A stretch of 42,078 nt of DNA from Candidatus Sulfomarinibacteraceae bacterium. GTDB lineage: Bacteria; Chloroflexota; Anaerolineae; Promineifilales; Promineifilaceae. Shown in pieces: positions 1-40,908 of the stretch (its first letter is position 1; each line of letters starts with the position of its first letter). Below the pieces are notes generated by a model. It saw nothing but the letters and a program-made list of their open reading frames with translations. It had not been told where the DNA came from and did no database searches. The stretch spans positions 1 to 42,078 of the forward strand of contig DATHSI010000227.1 of the NCBI GenBank assembly GCA_035464315.1. The letters are read 5' to 3'. The position numbers were made by a program, and so were the translations under genes.

Positions 1-825
1 GTCGCCCGGATCGCCGCCCCACATTGGCCACTCGCGGTGGCGGGCGTAGACGGTGAATAACCCTTCATTCGTTTCCCACCCTTCGAGCCCGGAGGCGGTC
101 AGACCGGCGTAGACCATGCGGTCCCCCTCATAGGCCGCAAAAATCTCTTCGAAAAGATCCACAGCGACCCAGTACTCGTCTTCGCCAACTTCTTCAGGTC
201 GTGGAGCCACGTCAACCAGGGCCAGGAACGTCTGCTTGACCCACTGCCCGTTGCCAATGTCCATCCATAGCCAACCGTCATCGCCCAGAGCCACGTCGTA
301 AATCTCTACGAACGTGTATCGCGGCAGCCAATCACTGCCCTCCGGGGGCGGCTGGTCGGGGCCGGGCGCCGGCTGCGCCCTTTGCATCAGCCAGCCGAAG
401 GGGCGCTCCGGCTGCCGGTTCACTTCCACGCCTGTCAGACGGCTGCCATTGTAGTGGTGCATGGTCTCGGCCCGTGCATACTCATTGTCCGCTACCTTGT
501 ACCATTGGTTACCGGCTTCATCGGCGACGACGCCTTCAATGGTGTAATAGAGGATACCCACCGTCCCTTCCACAGCAATCTCCGCATCCGCTGTGGGTTG
601 TGTGTAGAGGGGGGCGTGATCCTCAAGCCAGGAGTAGGTGCGGTTGAACATCAGGCCGCCGGATCGGAAACCGGGACCGGAGAATGTAGCGGGTTCAGGC
701 CGCGCGTCGCAGACATAGACGCCGGCCACCGATCGCTGGCAGTTGGCAGCCTCCGCCCGGTCGGCAAAAAAGGCCAGGGTCAGGAGCAGTATTGGGCCAA
801 TCAGGAGCAGACGAAGTTTTTTCAT
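1..825 (-). CDS. L,D-transpeptidase (YkuD domain) paralog, 3' part truncated by window edge
   Basis: Not in the ORF track because it runs off the window edge. Reverse translation from ATG (complement of 823-825) gives MKKLRLLLIGPILLLTLAFFADRAEA (signal peptide). The remainder is clearly paralogous to the 924..2024 protein (e.g. GDDGWLWMDIGNGQWVKQTFLALVDVAPRPEEVGEDEYWVAVDL vs SDGWLWYDIGDGQWVRENYLSIVDLTPRPEEVGEDEFWVDVDL). Nucleotide-level similarity is also visible. Confidence 0.6.
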   Translation of the reverse strand, partial: MKKLRLLLIGPILLLTLAFFADRAEAANCQRSVAGVYVCDARPEPATFSGPGFRSGGLMFNRTYSWLEDHAPLYTQPTADAEIAVEGTVGILYYTIEGVVADEAGNQWYKVADNEYARAETMHHYNGSRLTGVEVNRQPERPFGWLMQRAQPAPGPDQPPPEGSDWLPRYTFVEIYDVALGDDGWLWMDIGNGQWVKQTFLALVDVAPRPEEVGEDEYWVAVDLFEEIFAAYEGDRMVYAGLTASGLEGWETNEGLFTVYARHREWPMWGGDPGD

Positions 826-15702: not shown

Positions 15703-17445
15703 ATGCAACCGGAGTTCGTCATCATGTTGAAACGTCATTCGCAACTCTTTCTGCTCATCGCAGCCCTGGCAGCTTTTTCCCTGCTCGCCGTGGGCTGCCA
15801 GCCACAGCCGGAGCCGACGCCAGCACCGGAACCGTTCCCCGCACCGGTTGAGTTTGAGGCCAACGTCCTGCCGCCCGGTCCCGATCTACCCCGGGTCCAA
15901 TTGCGTCCGGGCCAGGCGCTGGTCGACGAACAGCTTGTGATCACCGGCGTCGGCGCAGACATCGACCGCGTGCTCGGTGCGCTGCCCGAGTTGCAGCTAG
16001 AGCCGTTGACCAGCACCTCTTTCGACTACCTGGAACGATACCAGTTGCCTGCGCCGGGCGGCGACCGGGATCAGCAGCAGAGCGTGGGCAAACGGCGCCG
16101 CAGCGGTCTGAGCTCCGTCATGCAGCAGGAGATGGCCACCCTGCGCGTTGACCTCTACGCGTTCTCCGCTGGCACTCCGCCGCTCTCCGACACACTGCAG
16201 ATCATCGCCGACACGGTTGAAGAGCTGGGCCAGGAACAGCAAGTACGCGTGGTCGCCGAGCCCAACTATGTGATGGGCTTCGAGATTACGGGCGACCCCT
16301 GGGCGGTTGAAGGCAGCCCGTGGGCCGTAGAGGGCAGCCCCTGGGCCGTGGAAGGGAGCCCCGCCGACGGCGGGCCGCATGCCAGCGATCACTTCTGGCA
16401 GCAGTGGGCCTTAGATGCCGGCAGCGGCATTGGCTTATTCTCTGCCGGCGCGCCTCCCGCCGGGCGTAATGCGGAGGGCGTGGGCGAGGGGATACGCGTT
16501 GCCGTTTTCGACACCTCGCCGTTTTCCGGCCCCGGCGGCTACCGTTTTGATCGCTGGGGACCGCCGGATGTACCGTCGCTGGCCCTCACTGTTTCAGAGC
16601 CGGTGGTGGTGCCCGTTTCTATGACCGGCGAGGATATTGTACTGATCAGCGACCACGGGCTCTTTGTCTCCGGCCTGGCCTACGCTGTGGCTCCCGCCGC
16701 CGAGATTCACCTGGTCAAGGTGTTGAATGAGCATGGGCAGGGCACGCTGCAGGCTTTCATCGACGCCCTGAACCTGTATATGCAGGAAAACGCCTCTCCG
16801 CCGGACGGCCTGAACAATACGATTATCAACCTCAGCCTGGGCACGTCGGAACCGGATGACGAGGAACTGCCGCCGGAAGCGCGACGCGCCATTGCGCGCA
16901 TGCTGGCGGTGTGGGGCTACCGGCCTCTGGCGGGCGAAGACAGCGTCGTCTTTTCGCTGGAATTGCCCATGCTCATCGCTGAAGGGCTGGGAGCCACCAT
17001 CGTCGCCGCTTCGGGCAATGACTCCATGAGCCCGCCGGAGGCCGCGCCGCTGCCGTCGCAGATTCCCGCCGCCTATCCGCAGATCCTTGGGGTCGAGGCC
17101 AGCAACCAGCAGCAGGCGCGTTCCTGCTTTGCTAACGAGGGCGATCTGGCTGCCCCGGGCGGCGATGGAGACGCCAACTGTGAGCCGGACCTGGAAGCCT
17201 GCGAAGGCATCGAGGGCGGCAGTTGCGGGGCCGGCGTTGTGAGCTATGTGCTGGCGGAACACGAGGGATTCGCCTACTGGGCGGGCACTTCGTTTGCCAC
17301 CCCCCTGGTCAGCGGCCTGGCGGGCCTGGTCCAGGAGGCGGGCGCCGGCAACCCCGACGTGGTACGTCAGACGGTGCTCTGCTCCGCTCAGAACACGGGC
17401 ATCGTAGATGTGGTGGAGGCGCTGACCAGTTGTGCCACGCCGTAG
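15703..17445 (+). CDS. subtilisin-like (S8) serine peptidase lipoprotein with PWAVEGS heptapeptide repeats
   Basis: Signal/lipobox LLAVGC. Asp region AVFDTS, His region SDHGLFVSGLAYAV, Ser region GTSFATPLVSGLAGL. Start taken at ATG 15703 (alternative 15724); the track ORF is extended upstream. Confidence 0.7.
   Translation: MQPEFVIMLKRHSQLFLLIAALAAFSLLAVGCQPQPEPTPAPEPFPAPVEFEANVLPPGPDLPRVQLRPGQALVDEQLVITGVGADIDRVLGALPELQLEPLTSTSFDYLERYQLPAPGGDRDQQQSVGKRRRSGLSSVMQQEMATLRVDLYAFSAGTPPLSDTLQIIADTVEELGQEQQVRVVAEPNYVMGFEITGDPWAVEGSPWAVEGSPWAVEGSPADGGPHASDHFWQQWALDAGSGIGLFSAGAPPAGRNAEGVGEGIRVAVFDTSPFSGPGGYRFDRWGPPDVPSLALTVSEPVVVPVSMTGEDIVLISDHGLFVSGLAYAVAPAAEIHLVKVLNEHGQGTLQAFIDALNLYMQENASPPDGLNNTIINLSLGTSEPDDEELPPEARRAIARMLAVWGYRPLAGEDSVVFSLELPMLIAEGLGATIVAASGNDSMSPPEAAPLPSQIPAAYPQILGVEASNQQQARSCFANEGDLAAPGGDGDANCEPDLEACEGIEGGSCGAGVVSYVLAEHEGFAYWAGTSFATPLVSGLAGLVQEAGAGNPDVVRQTVLCSAQNTGIVDVVEALTSCATP
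16297..16359 (+). repeat. 3 x 21-bp imperfect tandem repeat encoding PWAVEGS x3 inside the S8 peptidase gene
   Basis: ccctgggcggttgaaggcagc / ccgtgggccgtagagggcagc / ccctgggccgtggaagggagc. Confidence 0.6.
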
Positions 17446-19745: not shown

Positions 19746-20666
19746 TCAACCCCCGTCGCCGTAATCCAGAAAACGCTCTTCAATCCAGCCCGCTTCACCC
19801 TCTAACGTCTGCACCTCGCGCCATAGCGCACCGCCCTGGTTGGCTCGACGCGATAAGACGAGCAACGTCTGGCCGTGGCTGACCAGCTCCAGTTCCTGGC
19901 CGCCCGGTGATCGATAGAGCCAGATGTTGGCGCCGTCAGAGTCGACGACGGCCGTTTCTCCCTCCACCGGTGTCGGCGTCAGGGTAGGGGTGGGGGTGAA
20001 GGTCGGCGTGGGGGTTGACGTTGGCGTCTGGCTGGGGGTCGGTGTGGGGCTTGGCGTCCAGGTGGGGGTTGGCGTGTCGGTGGTGACGCGCGTGGGTGTG
20101 GCTGTGGCTGCCGCCGCTTCTTCTCCTTCCACCGTGGGCTCGCCAGGCTCGCCTTCATCCGTTGGCGTGGGAATGTCCGGCGTGGCTACCGGCGTTGTCT
20201 CCACGCCTTCGCCTTCGCTACCCTCAACCTCGTCATTTTCCGCGTCGAGCGTGGGTTCTTCGCGCGTGGGCACGCCACCGAAGGCGCCCGAGGAGGGGCG
20301 CGTAATTGTGGCGGTTCCCGTGATAGCCACAGTGGTGGTCATAGGCGCCGCCGGCTGGTCCTCCTCCGGTGACGGGACGGCGTCGCCGGCGACCGTCACC
20401 GGTGTCTCATCATCTACGCTGGCGACCGGTTCTACCTGCGGCTCACCCAGAGGCACCCCGGCGACGAAGAAGCCGGCGATCAGCAGCAGGCAGGCGAAAG
20501 CATAGCCTGTAAAGGCCCGCACCCGCAGATCAAGGCGATAAACGTCCAGACCCAGTCGTCGCATGAGCCCAGGTGATTGTCCGATGAGGGCCAGTGTTAC
20601 AAATATCAGGGCGCCAAGGGCCGAGAGACCCATGCCCCATAGAGTCCATGTTGGAAATCCCATCAT
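19746..20666 (-). CDS. membrane protein: N-terminal TM helices, Pro/Thr-rich linker, C-terminal SH3b-like domain
   Basis: Two hydrophobic helices at the N-terminus. TPTPTWTPSPTPTP linker. C-terminus ANIWLYRSPGG...GWIEERFLD is SH3_3-like. Confidence 0.5.
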   Translation of the reverse strand: MMGFPTWTLWGMGLSALGALIFVTLALIGQSPGLMRRLGLDVYRLDLRVRAFTGYAFACLLLIAGFFVAGVPLGEPQVEPVASVDDETPVTVAGDAVPSPEEDQPAAPMTTTVAITGTATITRPSSGAFGGVPTREEPTLDAENDEVEGSEGEGVETTPVATPDIPTPTDEGEPGEPTVEGEEAAAATATPTRVTTDTPTPTWTPSPTPTPSQTPTSTPTPTFTPTPTLTPTPVEGETAVVDSDGANIWLYRSPGGQELELVSHGQTLLVLSRRANQGGALWREVQTLEGEAGWIEERFLDYGDGG

Positions 20667-20845: not shown

Positions 20846-22246
20846 ATGGCAAATCAATATCAAGCGATCGTCCTTGGCGCAGGGCCGGCCGGTTACGTCG
20901 CTGCCATCCGCGCGGCGCAGCTGGGCCTGAAAACGGCTATTGTGGAGAAAGAGGCCCTCGGAGGTGTTTGTCTCAATGTAGGCTGCATTCCCTCCAAAGC
21001 GTTGTTGAAAAATGCGGAGGTGGCCCACACGCTGCAGCACCGCGGCAAGGAGTTCGGATTCAGCTTCGAAAACCTGGACCTGGATTATGCTGCGGCTTTC
21101 ACGCGCAGCCGGCAGGTGAGCGAGCGGCTGGTCAAAGGCGTGGGTTTCCTTATGAGGAAGAATGAAATCGACGTGTTTGAAGGCGCCGGCTCGCTGACGG
21201 GACGCAATAGCTTGCAGGTGGCTCTGAACGACGGCGGCGAGGAGACGCTGAACTTTGACAACCTCATCCTGGCCACCGGCGCCCGGCCGCGCATGATTCC
21301 CGGCGTGGAGGTCGATGGCGAGAAGATTGTGACCTATCTGGAAGCAATCATGTCGGACGACGTGCCGGAGAAGGCCGTGATCATCGGCGCGGGCCCCATC
21401 GGTATGGAATTTGCCTACGTGTGGGCCAATTATGGAACGGACGTGACCATCGTTGAGATGATGTCGCATCTCCTACCCAACGAAGATCCGGAAGTCAGCC
21501 AGGTTGTGGAGAAGGCCTACCGCAAGCTGGGCATCACCTACCACACGGATAGCATGGTTGAAAGTGTGGAGACCACCGACGACGGTGTGAAGGTGAGCAT
21601 CAAAGATGGTGAGGATCTGGAGGTTGACCAGGTGCTGGTGGCCATTGGCTTCCAACCCAACGTAGACAGTATCGGCCTCAACGGCGATCTCGAGCTGGAG
21701 ACAAATGAGTGGGGCGGCATTGCCGTGGACGAGGGCATGCGCACCAGCGTTCCCAACATTTATGCCGTCGGCGATCTGGTTGCGCCTGAGAATTTGATGC
21801 TGGCTCACATTGGTTCGGCCATGGGCCTGGTCGCTGCGGAAACGATTGCCGAGCATCCGACGATCAGCCTGGAGTACCTGATGCTGCCGCGCTGTACATA
21901 TTGCCAGCCCCAGGTGGCCAGCTTTGGCTATACAGAGGAACAGGCCCAGGAAGAGGGCTACGAGATCAACGTGGGCAAATTCCCCTTCCAGCCCAACGGC
22001 AAAGCGCTGGGACTGGGCGAGCGCGACGGTTTTATCAAGATTGTGGCCGATGCTCGCTACGGTGAGATTCTGGGAGCGCACATGGTGGGCCCGGATGTCA
22101 CCGAGTTGCTGCCAGAGCTGACGCTGGCGCGCATGAACGAGCTGACCGCAGAGGAAATTGCGCGCAACGTGCACGCGCACCCCACGCTCAGCGAGGTGAT
22201 CATGGAGGCTGCGCACGGTGTGGAGGGGGATCCCATCCACATTTAG
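20846..22246 (+). CDS. lpdA: dihydrolipoyl dehydrogenase (E3)
   Basis: GGVCLNVGCIPSKALL redox-active disulfide motif. FAD/NAD Rossmann GxGxxG motifs. C-terminal HAHPTLSE dimerisation motif. Confidence 0.9.
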   Translation: MANQYQAIVLGAGPAGYVAAIRAAQLGLKTAIVEKEALGGVCLNVGCIPSKALLKNAEVAHTLQHRGKEFGFSFENLDLDYAAAFTRSRQVSERLVKGVGFLMRKNEIDVFEGAGSLTGRNSLQVALNDGGEETLNFDNLILATGARPRMIPGVEVDGEKIVTYLEAIMSDDVPEKAVIIGAGPIGMEFAYVWANYGTDVTIVEMMSHLLPNEDPEVSQVVEKAYRKLGITYHTDSMVESVETTDDGVKVSIKDGEDLEVDQVLVAIGFQPNVDSIGLNGDLELETNEWGGIAVDEGMRTSVPNIYAVGDLVAPENLMLAHIGSAMGLVAAETIAEHPTISLEYLMLPRCTYCQPQVASFGYTEEQAQEEGYEINVGKFPFQPNGKALGLGERDGFIKIVADARYGEILGAHMVGPDVTELLPELTLARMNELTAEEIARNVHAHPTLSEVIMEAAHGVEGDPIHI

Positions 22247-22260
22247 GCGCTTCTAGGATA

Positions 22261-22290
22261 AAAAAAGAGGCCGCTGATGCGGCCTCTCCA
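22261..22290 (-). terminator. rho-independent terminator (GAGGCCGC-tgat-GCGGCCTC + T-tract on minus strand) downstream of tRNA-Val
   Basis: Perfect 8-bp GC-rich stem with a 4-nt loop. It is followed on the minus strand by TTTTTT (plus strand aaaaaa at 22261-22266). Confidence 0.6.
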
Positions 22291-22291
22291 G

Positions 22292-22365
<74 letters not shown>

Positions 22366-22380
22366 GTGCAGCAAGAACAT

Positions 22381-22408
22381 ATTATATCATTTATTGGTCG
22401 CGTGGCAA
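22381..22408 (-). promoter_or_regulatory. candidate sigma70 promoter for tRNA-Val (TTGCCA - 16 nt - TATAAT on minus strand)
   Basis: Minus-strand TTGCCA (plus 22403-22408) and TATAAT (plus 22381-22386). The TATAAT lies ~15 nt upstream of the mature tRNA 5' end. Confidence 0.4.
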
Positions 22409-29236: not shown

Positions 29237-29403
29237 GAGAGATTGGAGATTGGTTGACTGGAGATTGGTTGCGGATGGCGCCATAGCGCCAAGCCGATAA
29301 ACGCAGATAATTTGAGATCTTTCATCAGCGTCTATCGGCGTCCATCGGCGGCAAAGATTCTCCAATCTCCAGTCTCCGATCTCCAATCTCCGATCTCCAA
29401 TCC
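29237..29403. repeat. GGAGATY-heptad inverted-repeat element, copy B (two arms of tandem heptads flanking an ~80-nt core), between convergent stop codons
   Basis: Left arm ggagagattggagattggttgactggagattggttgcgg. Right arm tccaatctccagtctccgatctccaatctccgatctccaatccc, i.e. (GGAGATY)n inverted. The core contains the palindrome atggcgccat. The element abuts the TAG of tag (+) and the TAG of the minus-strand GT-C gene. Confidence 0.6.
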
Positions 29404-31941
29404 CTATTCTCTCACAACCACCGGTCCCAATATGTACCGATCCCCAACCAGGTTGCCCTGCGCGTCGGCCAGGTGCAGGCGGCGACCGCTGGTCATTTCG
29501 TAGAGACCGACTTCGATGAAGTAATCGCCCGGTGGGAGGTCGTCCCTGATCGTCAGGCGATAGGGGTCCCACAGGCGTTGGCCGGGGAGCCACTTGGGAA
29601 TCCACAGGTGGGTGGGGGCGGCGCCGCCCAGGGGCGTGTAATCCAGCTCTTGATAGGAGCGGTTGGCGGCGTCGATGAGGTGCACGAAGACAGTATAGCT
29701 TTCCTCAGCCTGCGCCAGACTACGCCACTGCAAGAACAGATTGATTGTGTCGCCGTTCTGCACCGTCAGCGGCGTCTGCCACGGGCCGCGGCGCAGCGAT
29801 AGACCGCTCTGGGCCCAGGCCATAGACAACCCCACACGCTGGCGGAAGTTGGCCAGGAGCTCGTCTGTGTGCGGCGGGCGCGGCTGCGCCCGGACCTCTA
29901 GCGGCCCCAGTTCCACGTCCAGCGGCAGAAGCTCGTCCTGGCTCAGGTTCTTGAGAGCCAACGACAGCGGGTAGCTGCCCGCGGGCAAATCGTGGGGCAG
30001 TGCGAAGTCGAAACGTTCTACAATTACCTCTTCCGGTTCCCACAGCGGCGTCAGGAGGTGGTGGTCCGTCGTGTAAGTGTATTCAATGGCCTGCTTATCG
30101 CCTCCAGACGGCACGCCGCCCAGCGCGAGCGAGGGCACGTAGTACTCCTCCGGCGTTTGTGGTGCACGCATGGCCAGGACGAGGGGCACGAAGTCGCCCG
30201 CCGTTACCTCGCGCCGGGGCAGCCCGTAACCAACGACCTCGATCTCCCCCGCCGAGACCGCAAGCTCGTCCAGCTCCGGCGGGATGGATTCCTCGCCCGG
30301 TTCCACCACCTCGTAGAACGGTCCGCGCGGTCGCAGCCGGAAACCGGCGGCGACAATCTCGCTGCGGTAGCCGTTAAGGTAGACGGGGCCGCCGCCCAGG
30401 TAAGCGTAGACGCTTTCCACCCACGGTTGTTGTGTGGAGACGAATTCGGGGCGCACGTCGGTGGGATCGGGCCAGCGCTCGTTTACAAAGCGCTCGTACC
30501 ACATGGGCGTCATGTGCTCCCAGTCGTGCAGCAGCACGGCGCGCTCGGCGCGGCCCTCAAAGTAGTCGAAAACCGCTTCCACATAGCCGCGTCCCTCGTC
30601 GTAGTCGCGCAACGAAATGTGCGGCAGGTTGCGCGCGGCCTGTTGCACGGGTCCCAGCAAAAAGAAGACGGCGACGAGCAAGGCTGCGACGCGCGCGGTG
30701 GATTGTGCCCACCGGCCGGACTGCGTCCAGCGGCTGGATAAAATCCAGCTTGGCGCGGCGTGTACGACGGCCAGCAGCCCCAGGCCGGAGAGCATGCCCC
30801 AGAGCATGAAGGGTCCCAGCAGGTAGGCCATGATGTCCTGCGCGCGCAGGCTGATGACGAACGCGTAGTTGGCCAGGAAGGCCACACCGTAGAGCAGCGC
30901 CAGCCGCCGGCGCAGCGGGCCGGCGCGCCACAGCCACAGCAAGCCCAGCGGCGCCAGCAGGATGGTGGGCAACGCGTACTGCAGCCGCATCAGCGTCCAG
31001 AAAACGAGGGTGCGCAAAGGCTGTTCGGCCAGGCTGTAGAAGGGCAGGCTCTCCGTCAGCCCGCGGGCCAGAACGTGGTCCAGAAAGCCCTGTAGCGTGT
31101 TCATGTTGTGCGGCCCGAACACCGGCTCCATCGCGCTGCGCAGAGGGAAGTAGAGCCACACGCTTAACCCCAGCAGCGCCATCAGCAATGTCCTGACGAT
31201 GGTACGTCCCTGACGCCAAATGCCGGGGCGCACGGTAAGGATGAACAGGCCATAGGCGGGGAAGCCGAAGACGGTCAGTGGATGGTGCGTGATGCCCAGC
31301 CCGGCGGAGAGAGCGAAGATGTACAGCCAGCGGTCGTCCCCCTCATCGGTCAACTTGCCGGCGTCTCCGGCGTGGGAGAGTCCCCAGCGCGTCAGGAGGT
31401 AGAGGTTGGCCATGAGGAAAGTGGCCGTGATGATGTGCGGGTTGGCGTGAATGGCGTGTTGCCACACGTCGGTTGCCAGGCCCACGGACAGCGCGCCGAA
31501 TAGGGCCGCCCACCCCGCCGGGAATCGGTCTGGCTCACGCCCGGCGACGGCGCGGATCATTCCGTATATGAAAATGGCGGCAACCGTGGCGCTGGTTGCC
31601 GACAGCAGGTGCATGCGCCACGGAATGTCGCCCAAGGGAATCAACGTCTGGAACAGTTTGCCGGCGAGGGTGATGAAGGCATACCCTGGCGGATGGGCGA
31701 TGCCCAGCACGTTGGCCACCAGCGTATACTCGGTCGGATCGCCGAGGACGAGGGAGCGGGCGAGGGTGAGGAGATAGAGGAGGGGAAGGGCGAGGAGGAG
31801 TAGGGGCTGGAGATTGGAGATTAGAGATTGGGGATTAGAGATTGGAGATTGGAGATTACTGGCACGCCTCGCCGCTCGCCGCTCTCCGCTCTCCGCTCTC
31901 CGCTCTCCAATCACCATGCCCTTACTTCCTGATTGCGTCAT
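29404..31941 (-). CDS. DUF2723/TMEM260-like GT-C family membrane glycosyltransferase (protein O-mannosyltransferase-like)
   Basis: Polytopic N-terminal half with GDPTEYTLVANVLGIAHPPGYAF (the DUF2723 signature region), then a large C-terminal soluble domain. The first ~40 codons of the track ORF are encoded by repeat copy C; the true start may be ATG 31917 or further downstream with a non-ATG start. Confidence 0.6.
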   Translation of the reverse strand: MTQSGSKGMVIGERRAESGERRAARRASNLQSPISNPQSLISNLQPLLLLALPLLYLLTLARSLVLGDPTEYTLVANVLGIAHPPGYAFITLAGKLFQTLIPLGDIPWRMHLLSATSATVAAIFIYGMIRAVAGREPDRFPAGWAALFGALSVGLATDVWQHAIHANPHIITATFLMANLYLLTRWGLSHAGDAGKLTDEGDDRWLYIFALSAGLGITHHPLTVFGFPAYGLFILTVRPGIWRQGRTIVRTLLMALLGLSVWLYFPLRSAMEPVFGPHNMNTLQGFLDHVLARGLTESLPFYSLAEQPLRTLVFWTLMRLQYALPTILLAPLGLLWLWRAGPLRRRLALLYGVAFLANYAFVISLRAQDIMAYLLGPFMLWGMLSGLGLLAVVHAAPSWILSSRWTQSGRWAQSTARVAALLVAVFFLLGPVQQAARNLPHISLRDYDEGRGYVEAVFDYFEGRAERAVLLHDWEHMTPMWYERFVNERWPDPTDVRPEFVSTQQPWVESVYAYLGGGPVYLNGYRSEIVAAGFRLRPRGPFYEVVEPGEESIPPELDELAVSAGEIEVVGYGLPRREVTAGDFVPLVLAMRAPQTPEEYYVPSLALGGVPSGGDKQAIEYTYTTDHHLLTPLWEPEEVIVERFDFALPHDLPAGSYPLSLALKNLSQDELLPLDVELGPLEVRAQPRPPHTDELLANFRQRVGLSMAWAQSGLSLRRGPWQTPLTVQNGDTINLFLQWRSLAQAEESYTVFVHLIDAANRSYQELDYTPLGGAAPTHLWIPKWLPGQRLWDPYRLTIRDDLPPGDYFIEVGLYEMTSGRRLHLADAQGNLVGDRYILGPVVVRE
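31808..31912. repeat. GGAGATY-heptad element, copy C: (GGAGATT/AGAGATT)x7 followed by (CGCTCTC)x4
   Basis: ggagattggagattagagattggggattagagattggagattggagatt ... cgccgctcgccgctctccgctctccgctctccgctctcc. It overlaps the annotated 5' end of the GT-C ORF on the minus strand. Confidence 0.6.
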
Positions 31942-33040: not shown

Positions 33041-33085
33041 GGCGCCAACCGCAACGCGCCCGCCTGCTGGCTGTTTGTTGCTACG

Positions 33086-33127
33086 ATCATGCTTGCTCCA
33101 TCATGCTTGCGCCATCATACTTGCTCT
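33086..33127 (-). repeat. 3 x 14-bp tandem repeat (minus strand GGnGCAAGyATGAT) spanning the epimerase stop and the GT4 5' leader
   Basis: Plus strand atcatgcttgctcc / atcatgcttgcgcc / atcatacttgctct. Each unit carries an SD-like GGAG/GGCG/AGAG + ATGAT on the coding (minus) strand. Confidence 0.7.
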
Positions 33128-34068
33128 TTTTCCCACCACTCCGTGCACCAGGAGACCGCTTTATGAATGCCTTCACGCAGAGGCGTTGCCGGCTCGTAGC
33201 CGAGGAGCGCGCGCGCCTTGCCGATGTTGGCCACGTAATGGGTGACTTCGCCCACACGAGAGGGTTCGATGGACATCTCGGGCTCCACGCCCAGGGCCTG
33301 GCCTACGTAACGGGCCATGGTCACCAGGCTGTTGCCCTGTCCATAAGCCAGGTTGATGGTGTGGTTGGCCTCGTCGCCGGAAGCCAGCAGGTCAATGCCC
33401 GCACGCACGCCCGCGATGCAGTCGTCGACGTAGGTGAAATCGAGTACTTTGTCTTCGCCGTAAATTGTGATCGGTTCGCCGCGGTCGATTTTACGGATAA
33501 AGAGGGGGATCACGCGCTCCATGCGCTCCAGGTCGTTATCGTAACGCCCGTAGACGTTGCTGAAGCGGAAAACCAGATAGCGCAACCCGTAACATTGGGC
33601 GTAGGCGTAGATCAGGGCCTCCCCGGAGATTTTGCTCGCGGAGTAGGGACTCTCCGTAAAGGCGAAGTCGGCGTACGATTCCTCGGTGATGTAGCGGTGG
33701 ATATCACCGTACACCTCGCGCGAGCTGCTGAAGATGAGGGGCAGAGCGTTCTGGCGGCAGAACTCGAGCACGTTGTAGGTCATGGTGATATTTTGCAGAG
33801 CGCGGTCGGGCTCTTCGACCAACTCGTGCACCTTGGCGTGAGCCGCAAAGTGCACCACGACGTCCAGATCTTCCGGATATTGCACGTGGCCGATGCCGCC
33901 CTCGAAGCTGTGATAGGGCGCGCTCAAGTCCTGCAACAGCGTTTCGAATTCGTCCGTCCAGGGGTTGAGACGGATGTCGATGCCAAATACGTAATGTCCA
34001 TCGCGGAGCAGGCTCAGGGCCAGGTTGGTCCCGATCTGCCCGCTGGAACCGGTAATTAAAACTCGCAT
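33115..34068 (-). CDS. NAD-dependent epimerase/dehydratase (SDR family; UDP-sugar epimerase-like)
   Basis: N-terminal MRVLITGSSGQIGTNLALSL Rossmann motif. Catalytic YSASK (YxxxK). AAGGAGA SD upstream of ATG 34068. Confidence 0.85.
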   Translation of the reverse strand: MRVLITGSSGQIGTNLALSLLRDGHYVFGIDIRLNPWTDEFETLLQDLSAPYHSFEGGIGHVQYPEDLDVVVHFAAHAKVHELVEEPDRALQNITMTYNVLEFCRQNALPLIFSSSREVYGDIHRYITEESYADFAFTESPYSASKISGEALIYAYAQCYGLRYLVFRFSNVYGRYDNDLERMERVIPLFIRKIDRGEPITIYGEDKVLDFTYVDDCIAGVRAGIDLLASGDEANHTINLAYGQGNSLVTMARYVGQALGVEPEMSIEPSRVGEVTHYVANIGKARALLGYEPATPLREGIHKAVSWCTEWWEKEQV

Positions 34069-34120
34069 AGATTCTCCTTTGCCTCGCGGATTTTATGGGC
34101 GTAGGGCATTGGTGGCAAGC

Positions 34121-34250
34121 GGCCGAGCTCTGCTCGGCTGGGGCCAAGCTTCGCTCGGCTGGGGCCAAACGAAGTTTGGCCGGGCCTGACCGCTGCTTAG
34201 TCAGGATTGAACTTCGTTTGGCCGGGCCTGACCGTTGCTTAGCCAGGGTT
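34121..34250. repeat. structured intergenic region: two 17-nt direct repeats (period 20) and two 27-nt direct repeats (period 42) with embedded hairpins
   Basis: gctcggctggggccaa at 34133 and 34153. gtttggccgggcctgaccg(c/t)tgcttag at 34174 and 34216. Hairpins gccgagc-tct-gctcggc and ggccaaa-cgaag-tttggcc. A longer stem pairs aaacgaagtt with aacttcgttt. Confidence 0.6.
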
Positions 34251-34259
34251 GGAGTTTGT

Positions 34260-35012
34260 TCAGCCGGGGCGGTTGAGCAGGACGCGCAGGGCAAAATGGG
34301 GCAGGGCCAGCATGCGACGCCAGCGCCAGGGTTCGTGCAGCAGGCGGTGTAGCCATTCCAGCCCCAGGCGTTGCCAGCCACGCGGCGCGCGGATGGCGCG
34401 GCCCGTGACGAAGTCGAGAGCGCCGCCCACGCCCAGAGCCAGGCGCACGTCCGTCAGCGCGTGGCGGTTGCGCGCAATCCACTTGTCTTGCCGTGGCGCG
34501 CCGTAGGCCACGTAGAGCACGCGGGCGCCGCTGTTGTTGATGCGCGACACGATTTCGTCGTTCTCGGCGGGGTTCGGCGAGCCGGCGTACGCGCCGGCAA
34601 TCGTCAGCCCTGCATAGCGCGCGCGAAATATCTCGCCCGCCTCCTGGGCCACGCCGGGCGCCGCTCCCAACAGGTACAGGGGCCAGCCCTCCTGCGCCGC
34701 TAGCTGCGCCAGATGGTAAACTAGCTCAGACCCCGGTACGCGTTCCGGCAGACGCTGCCCGTAGCGTCGCGCTGCGTAGAGCAGACCTATGCCGTCCGGC
34801 AGGCAGAGATCGGCTTCGCGCAACACCTTCAAGAAGTGTGCGTCGCGCTGCGCCGTCATCACAAACTCAGGGTTTACCGTGGCGATCTGGTGCAGGCGCG
34901 GCTCCTGCATGAAGGTGCGCGCAAGGCGCAGCGTCTCGTCCATGGTCACGGGATGGATGGGAACGTCCAGAATGGGTAGCGGGCTGGGGGAAGCGCCAGA
35001 GACGTCGCTCAT
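34260..35012 (-). CDS. WecB/TagA/CpsF-family glycosyltransferase (N-acetylmannosaminyl-type transferase)
   Basis: ILDVPIHPVTMDETL...ATVNPEFVM...LPDGIGLLYAARRYG...GAPPGVAQEAGE...YAGSPNP pattern of the Glyco_tran_WecB family. Start set at ATG 35012, which overlaps the upstream stop (ATGA). The 80-aa N-terminal extension in the track ORF overlaps the upstream gene and is rejected. Confidence 0.65.
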   Translation of the reverse strand: MSDVSGASPSPLPILDVPIHPVTMDETLRLARTFMQEPRLHQIATVNPEFVMTAQRDAHFLKVLREADLCLPDGIGLLYAARRYGQRLPERVPGSELVYHLAQLAAQEGWPLYLLGAAPGVAQEAGEIFRARYAGLTIAGAYAGSPNPAENDEIVSRINNSGARVLYVAYGAPRQDKWIARNRHALTDVRLALGVGGALDFVTGRAIRAPRGWQRLGLEWLHRLLHEPWRWRRMLALPHFALRVLLNRPG

Positions 35013-38239: not shown

Positions 38240-38247
38240 GGGGGGAC

Positions 38248-38352
38248 TAGAGATTGGAGATCAGAGATTGGAGATCAGAGATCGGAGATTGGGAAACTTA
38301 CGCTCTCCAACCTCGAATCAACCAATCTCCAGTCAACCGATTTCCAATCTCC
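38248..38352. repeat. GGAGATY-heptad inverted-repeat element, copy D; its distal end overlaps the last codons and stop of cysC
   Basis: Left arm agagattggagatcagagattggagatcagagatcggagattggg. Right arm cgctctccaacctcgaatcaaccaatctccagtcaaccgatttccaatctcccc. The 17-mer ccaatctccagtcaacc is the exact reverse complement of ggttgactggagattgg in copy B. Confidence 0.6.
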
Positions 38353-38915: not shown

Positions 38916-40736
<1,821 letters not shown>

Positions 40737-40908
40737 TCACACGATTGTTATGATTCGCTATTTTTCAAAAAAAAGAGCATCGCGATAGCAATGCCTTCGC
40801 TATTGTATGGTAACGTCGTTCCTCGACAAGTATAATGCAAAATGGTCATGTAATTGGTAATTTTCTCCTCTCTTAATCCTGATGCAGGAGTCATTATAGC
40901 GGCGCTAT

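Follow-up and report, generated by a model that had tools for sequence, protein, structure and literature searches.

A hairpin-containing minisatellite between a wecG-family gene and a sugar epimerase gene of an uncultured Anaerolineae bacterium, and its possible role as a 3'-end barrier

The window analyzed here, a 42,078-nt stretch of a Candidatus Sulfomarinibacteraceae genome, carries on its minus strand a gene for a WecG/TagA/CpsF-family glycosyltransferase (wecG), followed by a gene for an NAD-dependent sugar epimerase/dehydratase (Table 1). Among the called genes, wecG is the last of a tightly packed prmC-sua5-hyp-GT4-wecG run, and the epimerase gene opens an epimerase-GT4-TMEM260-like run, in which it is followed by a second GT4 gene and a gene for a TMEM260-like protein O-mannosyltransferase. 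The upstream run is a housekeeping operon and the downstream run consists of glycosylation genes. The initial annotation had named the upstream gene wecB, and its Pfam assignment is in fact to the WecG/TagA/CpsF-family transferases. The gap between the two genes is occupied by a repeat array, which begins 2 nt past the wecG stop codon and finishes 3 nt short of the predicted -35 box of the epimerase gene.

Table 1. Features of the wecG-epimerase gap and of related repeat-filled gaps. Positions refer to the window unless a related locus (L) is named.
Feature	Position	Strand	Description
WecG/TagA/CpsF-family glycosyltransferase gene (wecG)	34260-35012	-	250 aa as called; Pfam PF03808, E = 1.6e-59
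wecG stop codon	34260-34262	-	
wecG-epimerase gap	34069-34259		191 nt; both genes on the minus strand
Distal 42-nt unit A1	34216-34257	-	hairpin A1 plus core AGGCCCGGCCAAAC at 34216-34229
Hairpin A1	34227-34247		CCUGGC-UAAGCAACG-GUCAGG
Proximal 42-nt unit A2	34174-34215	-	hairpin A2 plus core AGGCCCGGCCAAAC at 34174-34187
Hairpin A2	34185-34205		CCUGAC-UAAGCAGCG-GUCAGG
Palindrome/hairpin P0	34163-34181	.	GGCCAAAC-TTC-GTTTGGCC; 19 nt, 8-bp stem
21-nt tandem repeat, 2.3 copies	34121-34168	-	carries hairpins B1 and B2
Hairpin B1	34143-34159		GCCGAGC-GAA-GCUUGGC; 7-bp stem
Hairpin B2	34122-34138		GCCGAGC-AGA-GCUCGGC; 7-bp stem
Predicted sigma-70-type promoter of the epimerase gene	34090-34118	-	TTGCCA-17-TAAAAT; 10/12 consensus match
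Promoter hexamers	34118-34113; 34095-34090	-	-35 TTGCCA; -10 TAAAAT; spacer 17 nt
Shine-Dalgarno sequence and epimerase ATG	34066-34079	-	AAGGAG at 34079-34074, 5-nt spacer, ATG at 34068-34066; kept in relatives
NAD-dependent sugar epimerase/dehydratase gene	33115-34068	-	317 aa; Pfam PF01370, E = 1.7e-41
Gaps with GGAGAT-type heptamers	29237-29403; 31777-31908; 38240-38349; L085:2767-3000; L003:2265-2456; L083:2264-2413		
Flipped hairpins of the sister species	L003:48-66, 70-86 versus L083:47-65, 69-85		exact reverse complements

The predicted promoter is the only strong match in the gap, and 0.0 such matches are expected in shuffles. It lies 3 nt downstream of hairpin B2 and about 25 nt upstream of the epimerase ATG, which would place the transcription start near 34083. 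All the repeats sit upstream of its -35 box. Because the promoter is downstream of every repeat, the repeats would be 3'-UTR or promoter-upstream DNA, and not the 190-nt leader described initially. The -35 hexamer is common to this promoter and that of the tRNA-Val gene of the window. The promoter of the latter gene (22291-22365, minus strand), TTGCCA-16-TATAAT (22379-22408), is TG-extended and close to consensus, and the gene is followed by a textbook terminator with an 11-bp GC-rich stem and T7 (22264-22289), which can also serve the converging plus-strand gene ending at 22246.

The presence of repeats and hairpins in the gap, as noticed in the initial annotation, was confirmed by TRF, repeat search, a shuffle test and RNA folding. 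TRF finds a 21-nt unit in 2.3 copies at 34121-34168 (88% matches, score 75) and a 42-nt unit in 2.1 copies at 34179-34268 (83% matches, score 124). The repeat search recovers two 42-nt copies, 34174-34215 and 34216-34257, with 86% identity and an identical core of 19 nt, two 21-nt copies at 34121-34141 and 34142-34162, and several inverted repeats. The best ungapped direct-repeat scores in the 191-nt gap are 27 (offset 42) and 18 (offset 21), whereas 500 dinucleotide shuffles of the gap average 7.4 and never exceed 13; its tandem repeats and five short stem-loops are far beyond chance. With head-to-tail units of 10-100 nt that exceed chance by both TRF and the shuffles, the array constitutes a tandem-repeat minisatellite. 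The short direct repeats that had been read as 17-nt units 20 nt apart do exist, with a true spacing of 21 nt, and the array, which had been delimited at 34121-34250, reaches about 34257-34268. The two motifs picked out at that time occur exactly twice each within the window, all at this site.

In the sense orientation, the two 42-nt units (A1, A2) are followed by P0 and then by the two 21-nt units (B1, B2). The A1 and A2 stems comprise 6-7 bp, and the core AGGCCCGGCCAAAC of the A2 unit doubles as the left arm of P0. The A1 stem contains a G.U pair that forms only on the sense (minus) strand (-8.6 versus -3.6 kcal/mol). In addition, the right arm and loop of P0 can pair with the A1 core, giving a 14-bp long-range stem that encloses A2. 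The palindrome centers of P0, B1 and B2 fall at about -89, -68 and -47, i.e. in 21-nt (two-turn) steps. The minus-strand RNA of the gap folds with -83 kcal/mol (z = -4.2), compared with z = -2.3 for the antisense strand. No U-tract follows the hairpins and 0 terminator-like sites are found in 33900-34500, so that they are not canonical intrinsic terminators.

Several known kinds of element were considered and rejected. A CRISPR array does not fit, since the units are contiguous, their variable parts are alike within the array and there are no unique spacers; no cas genes are present among the called genes. An integron attC site is rejected for want of R''/R' boxes, and a MITE for want of terminal inverted repeats or a target duplication at the locus. 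A small upstream ORF is likewise dismissed, as the sole short ORF begins within the promoter spacer, and so is a degenerate heptamer array, as the units are 21 and 42 nt long and successive heptamers are dissimilar.

Our comparison with relatives separates the promoter from the repeats. The promoter is conserved in eight related loci (L003, L083, L084, L095, L096, L151, L153 and L154), together with the TCCGC...AAGGAG leader and the ATG, at epimerase or WecG identities of 79-96%. Synteny of WecG and epimerase is found in about 20 of 80 species genomes, where the gap measures 0 to 423 nt and is non-homologous. At 79-85% identity, the gaps of relatives span 103-250 nt and lack these repeats, and no comparable hairpin lies between wecG and the promoter in the next relatives. 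Among the relatives examined, the repeats are confined to the species of the window and one sister species. Locus L085, whose epimerase is 89% identical, has its own 234-nt gap (L085:2767-3000) of nested inverted arrays composed of (TTGGAGA)n, three copies of CACGAATTG, three copies of CATCCGCGT and (TCTCCAA)n, and a like style of array with other units is seen at the gap in L011, L012, L042 and L052. The window and L002 have equal copy number, and no within-population copy-number change was seen.

The sister species is represented by two MAGs, JBMCFH01 (L149 on the wecG side, L003 on the epimerase side) and JBMCTQ01 (L083). Past its wecG stop codon are at least 4.6 copies of a 36-nt unit, GTCYAGCCGCRGYAGGTCCAGGCCCGGCCAARCGAA, which run to the contig end, and the epimerase-side contigs start inside the array. 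Because the contigs of both sides end or begin in repeats, the assembly breaks within the array and the sister copy number is a lower bound; three independent assemblies break inside the array. The match between the 36-nt unit and the 42-nt unit of the window is limited to a core of about 22 nt. Since GTCCAG...GTCCAGG stands in direct orientation in the sister species, the A hairpin is not kept there, and the 36-nt units fold poorly on the sense strand (-60.8 kcal/mol versus -85.7 antisense). Of the proximal hairpins, the sister species shows P0 and B, the latter once and not twice as in the window. The two species thus differ as minisatellites do, with two 42-nt units versus at least 4.6 36-nt units and two B hairpins versus one. 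P0 is shifted by exactly 21 nt in the sister species and the spacing of P0 and B stays in 21-nt steps; all 19 nt of P0 are identical in L003, and its loop is inverted in L083.

Identity at 4-fold sites is 0.70 between the window and the sister species and 0.986 between the two sister MAGs. The latter carry exact reverse-complement flips of the P0 and B loops (TTCG versus GAAG; GAAG versus TTCG), and their distal units differ too. Since two MAGs that are 98.6% identical at 4-fold sites carry such flips, hairpins must invert far more rapidly than single bases are substituted. In its number of copies, the length of its units and the orientation of its loops, the array evolves at a much higher rate than synonymous sites do. 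Window and sister species agree at every position over about 50 nt of core, P0 and B arms, and the probability of this under neutrality, at a neutral identity of 0.70, is about 1e-8. Therefore, at least the promoter-proximal module is constrained, unless a constrained copy has served again and again as its template. Over the 74 nt of promoter and leader, window and sister species differ at 5 positions (93% identical), and the neighboring epimerase-GT4 gap is about 70-75% identical. By these sequence comparisons, the promoter-proximal module (about 34069-34195) is constrained and the distal part behaves as a minisatellite. The window also carries, at 33086-33126, a 14-nt unit ATCATGCTTGCTCC in 2.9 copies, which extends across the epimerase stop codon into the GT4 gap, and this expansion is absent in the sister species.

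MAFFT places the sister P0 on B1 of the window, and P0 and B are recognizable as paralogous hairpins that share the form GCC[G/A]A[G/A]C-N3-G[C/T]T[C/T]GGC. Two compensatory pair changes separate them, with B1 as a G.U intermediate. Wobble pairs occur in three places, namely A1, B1 and the pairing of the sister core with the P0 arm, and all three form on the sense strand only (p = 0.125); the base pairs are essentially invariant in a four-sequence alignment that holds three distinct sequences. It is the sequence of the arms and cores that is conserved, and the palindrome centers vary freely. The symmetric arm changes and the variable or flipped centers point to self-complementarity being kept, and not a fixed recognition sequence. 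Palindrome-templated (quasipalindrome) mutation can yield compensatory changes without selection. Since it predicts the same pattern, the maintained self-complementarity is no proof of function.

No further copy of the motifs was found in the 42-kb window, and in about 660 kb of related loci they do not recur outside this locus. The A-hairpin pattern has 0 matches in 185,579 species genomes, a collection that evidently does not include the source genome. The core GGTC(N)AGGCCCGGCCAAAC has 51 matches in JGI metagenomes, all of them single 18-22-nt chance matches in unrelated, mostly coding contexts, and two scans of viral contigs gave 0 matches. The initial annotation had proposed that further copies upstream of other genes might define a regulon; because there is no other copy in the window, the related loci or the genome, metagenome and viral collections searched, no regulon is visible. 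Neither the called genes nor the Pfam annotations reveal a regulator gene in the gene cluster. No Rfam family matches at its gathering score, the best match having 25.7 bits against a threshold of 90.5 bits, and the sub-threshold matches to miRNA and lncRNA families obtained with permissive thresholds are meaningless.

Repeats also fill other gaps of the window, at 38240-38332, about 31777-31921, 33086-33126 and, between convergent genes, 29237-29403. Accordingly, the wecG-epimerase gap is not the only sizeable non-coding gap in the gene array, as had been thought, because 33041-33114 and about 31777-31921 likewise carry tandem repeats. The convergent gap, which has no promoter, folds into a hairpin of about 165 nt with heptamer arms. 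Other gaps with gene 3' ends contain long inverted repeat arrays that fold into hairpins, and the two divergent promoter gaps of the window contain no repeat arrays. With 18 sites against about 16.5-16.8 expected, the window shows no enrichment of canonical U-tract terminators, and only two of them are convincing, one after tRNA-Val and the other at 40795-40776. The second, a hairpin with T8, follows a promoter-like site (40829-40802) within the divergent gap 40671-40908 (238 nt); the sulfate adenylyltransferase/APS kinase gene lies downstream, and the hairpin may represent an attenuator or a small RNA.

Runs of GGAGAT-type heptamers, each with its inverted complement behind it, as in (TTGGAGA)n ... 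(TCTCCAA)n, occupy gaps between genes (Table 1), and some enclose inner 9-nt repeats. The resulting hairpins measure 90-165 nt, and the copy numbers of the heptamers are 7 and 6 in the window versus 15 and 10 in the sister species. With the start of the TMEM260-like gene as called (31917 or 31941), about 100 nt of heptamer repeats (31777-31917; compare L083:2264-2413) would fall within the part that encodes the N-terminus. Translation probably starts further downstream, near 31770, in which case these repeats would occupy a gap as well. Two further tandem repeats, at 16296-16362 (period 21 nt) and 19982-20110 (periods 6 and 18 nt), apparently lie within coding regions, where they would correspond to repetitive protein segments.

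Across 95 related loci (L003-L097, about 662 kb), TRF detects 240 tandem arrays, mostly intergenic, and 108 of them have a period of 7 (60 arrays), 14 (37) or 21 nt (11). They comprise many different heptamer sequences and often lie directly before or after the epimerase gene. Heptamer-multiple arrays look like a lineage-wide trait of these filamentous Anaerolineae. The arrays number 1.4 per kb in tandem, 0.86 in convergent and 0.54 in divergent gaps as delimited by a home-made ORF caller. Because this caller mis-called known genes, wecG included, we do not rely on the trend, though it is in the direction expected if tandem arrays avoid divergent (promoter-only) gaps. In at least 10 independent assemblies, a contig stops within 1-190 nt of this gap between wecG and the epimerase gene (contig ends of L003, L083, L084, L087-L094 and L149); repeat arrays systematically fragment the metagenome assemblies of this lineage.

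We tentatively favor the explanation that the array is a locally generated hairpin minisatellite, of which the conserved proximal hairpins form a barrier, at the 3' end or to read-through, in front of a promoter that acts independently. A young, lineage-restricted minisatellite of hairpin modules would fill the space from the wecG stop codon to the epimerase -35 box. A module next to the promoter, made up of the core GGTC(C)AGGCCCGGCCAAAC, hairpin P0 and hairpin B, would have given rise to it through tandem duplication in place and through rearrangements templated by palindromes. The array would be transcribed solely as the 3' untranslated tail of the wecG transcript, in which the GC-rich stem-loops P0 and B would most likely form a barrier that halts or slows read-through from the upstream housekeeping operon, and would also protect the 3' end of the upstream transcript. 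If the barrier stops read-through, the downstream glycosylation genes would therefore depend on a promoter of their own. As for the distal 42-nt units, they probably reflect slippage and lack a function in themselves. We infer from sequence that the promoter is used and that the hairpins may act in RNA, where they would terminate or stabilize transcripts, a model akin to REP/BIME elements and to the U-tract-less 'I-shaped' terminators.

The location of the array between the wecG stop codon and the promoter argues for the barrier, as does the conservation of the promoter and not of the repeats. The constraint on the proximal module, its kept self-complementarity, the wobble pairs of the sense strand and the sense fold (z = -4.2) are consistent with it, and so is the occurrence of hairpin arrays in gaps with gene 3' ends and not in divergent gaps, in a window where canonical U-tract terminators show no enrichment. 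The minisatellite part of the explanation agrees with the unit length (42 versus 36 nt), the copy number (2 versus at least 5) and the breaking of assemblies in the array. On the other hand, the hairpins have no U-tract, although this organism has a hairpin-plus-U7 terminator after tRNA-Val, and the array stems close on 3-nt loops, a feature seen in DNA palindromes more often than in functional RNA hairpins. Because the 36-nt units of the sister species fold poorly on the sense strand and the A hairpin is not conserved there, an RNA role can be argued for P0 and B only. A hairpin barrier is, moreover, no conserved requirement, since the next relatives have no comparable hairpin. Finally, quasipalindrome mutation can mimic compensatory change, and the support from wobble pairs amounts to p = 0.125.

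It is possible, though in our judgment doubtful, that the array has no function at all and is a neutral by-product of slippage and palindrome-templated (template-switch) mutation in a lineage prone to expanding its intergenic repeats, which persists since the gap tolerates it. This would account for the copy number, unit length and loop orientation outpacing synonymous sites, for an array found in one sister species only next to a promoter that is kept more widely, and for distal units that form no hairpin in the sister species. The lineage-specific 14-nt expansion of the neighboring gap and the 240 mostly intergenic tandem arrays of the 95 related loci fit a neutral origin as well. The roughly 50 unchanged nt of the core and of the P0 and B arms, with a probability of about 1e-8 at a neutral identity of 0.70, speak against neutrality.

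The initial annotation offered two mechanisms, and both fare worse, although the hairpins do form and the promoter-proximal part is constrained. The first was an operator or iteron-like DNA array, in which a lineage-specific protein would bind P0, B1, B2 and/or the 22-nt cores and control the epimerase promoter, with copy number tuning the output. We consider this unlikely. The array does lie directly upstream of the -35 box, its palindromes follow one another in 21-nt two-turn steps, with the sister P0 moved by exactly 21 nt, and the arms and cores are conserved with variable centers. One report indicates that upstream repeat number tunes promoters elsewhere, e.g. by the TTTTGAT heptads of Vibrio cholerae ctxAB (10.1101/2021.05.14.444153). 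However, there is no second motif copy in the 42 kb, the ~660 kb of relatives, the 185,579 genomes (A-hairpin pattern), the JGI metagenomes or the viral contigs, and no regulator gene in the cluster. As to the helical-turn phasing that had been described, the cores do not preserve it, being 42, 43 or 36 nt apart in different genomes, while P0 and B stay in 21-nt steps, and the half-sites of P0 and B differ via symmetric compensatory changes. Core and arms are kept in one sister species, and the sites are absent from other relatives that have the promoter. Three observations had been named as counting against a regulatory array, namely repeats unique to this locus, their non-conservation in relatives and a transcription start downstream of them; as far as prediction goes, two are found here and one is found in part.

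A bolder form of the same idea seems to us more improbable still. The conserved 22-nt cores and the P0/B palindromes would form an iteron-like site for a putative DNA-binding protein of uncultured filamentous Chloroflexota, and gain or loss of units (from 2 to at least 6), together with hairpin flipping, would tune or switch the protein-glycosylation operon. If this were true, the gap would extend contingency-type loci beyond the pathogens from which they are known, and might be one instance of a lineage-wide system that reads intergenic direct and inverted arrays.

A dispersed mobile or REP-like element inserted at the gap, either a MITE or a REP/BIME with its RAYT transposase, is very improbable. 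Clustered imperfect palindromes of alternating orientation at the 3' end of a gene are reminiscent of such elements, and the assemblies break at the array, but no other copy occurs in the sequences searched (42 kb of the source genome, relatives and collections), terminal inverted repeats and target duplications are absent, and a tandem array of at least 180 nt accounts for the assembly breaks. The second mechanism of the initial annotation, a structured 5' leader (riboregulator or attenuator) of an epimerase mRNA started inside or upstream of wecG, we regard as the least credible of all, since its better-than-shuffled sense fold (z = -4.2) and the alternative pairings of the A1 and A2 cores with the P0 arm, which resemble an antiterminator/terminator choice, are outweighed by the strong predicted promoter downstream of every repeat, kept in relatives without repeats, the lack of any Rfam match near the gathering score, a structure not conserved even in the sister species within an array absent in other relatives, and the lack of a U-tract terminator for attenuation.

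Among known systems, the REP/BIME elements of enterobacteria occur in hundreds of dispersed copies and are linked to RAYT transposases. They resemble the present array as clustered short GC-rich imperfect palindromes of alternating orientation, in a gap after a gene inside a gene cluster. Neither has a U-tract, and both, as 3' hairpins, would stabilize the upstream mRNA and damp read-through. In contrast to REP/BIME elements, the units here stand head-to-tail in variable copy number, without a second copy in the sequences searched. U-tract-less 'I-shaped' terminator hairpins have been proposed for high-GC bacteria. The array shares with intrinsic terminators the GC-rich 7-8-bp stems just after a stop codon and before the next promoter, but differs in its missing U-tract, its 3-nt loops and its several hairpins in tandem.

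Head-to-tail repeats just upstream of promoters of surface- or glycan-related genes, with copy numbers that differ between close relatives, are also known from VNTR and promoter-upstream tracts, such as the 7-bp repeats of the Haemophilus influenzae hmw promoters (PMC8262952) and the TTTTGAT heptads upstream of V. cholerae PctxAB, whose number tunes expression according to the report mentioned above (10.1101/2021.05.14.444153). The units of such tracts are 1-9 nt long, whereas those of the array are 21-42 nt long and contain hairpins. Heptamer or STRR-type repeats include the (GATAGRA)n satellite of Chloroflexus aurantiacus (PMC6749651) and the TAACTGA repeats of Beggiatoaceae, cyanobacteria and Bacteroidetes (PMC4679880). 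The array shares with them an intergenic niche, direct units followed by inverted units and, in its periods of 21 and 42, multiples of 7, but its units are GC-rich and unique to the locus, whereas the GGAGAT-type heptamers recur in several gaps and genomes. The lineage-wide heptamer arrays are in turn reminiscent of the cyanobacterial STRR and Beggiatoa TAACTGA repeats.

The array is thus a new example of an already known kind, the intergenic hairpin minisatellite, and the locus alone matters little. The gap would be neither a leader nor a conserved operator region; the epimerase-GT4-TMEM260-like genes have a conserved predicted promoter of their own, and the array is a fast-evolving local feature that breaks metagenome assemblies at this place. 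More broadly, Promineifilaceae, Ardenticatenaceae and 'Sulfomarinibacteraceae' of the Anaerolineae hold very many intergenic tandem and inverted arrays, often with multiples of 7 nt, and near-identical genomes allow one to follow here how such arrays turn over, through units gained or lost and hairpins inverted exactly. If these arrays have a common function or a common generator, loci such as the wecG-epimerase gap would be the places to test it.
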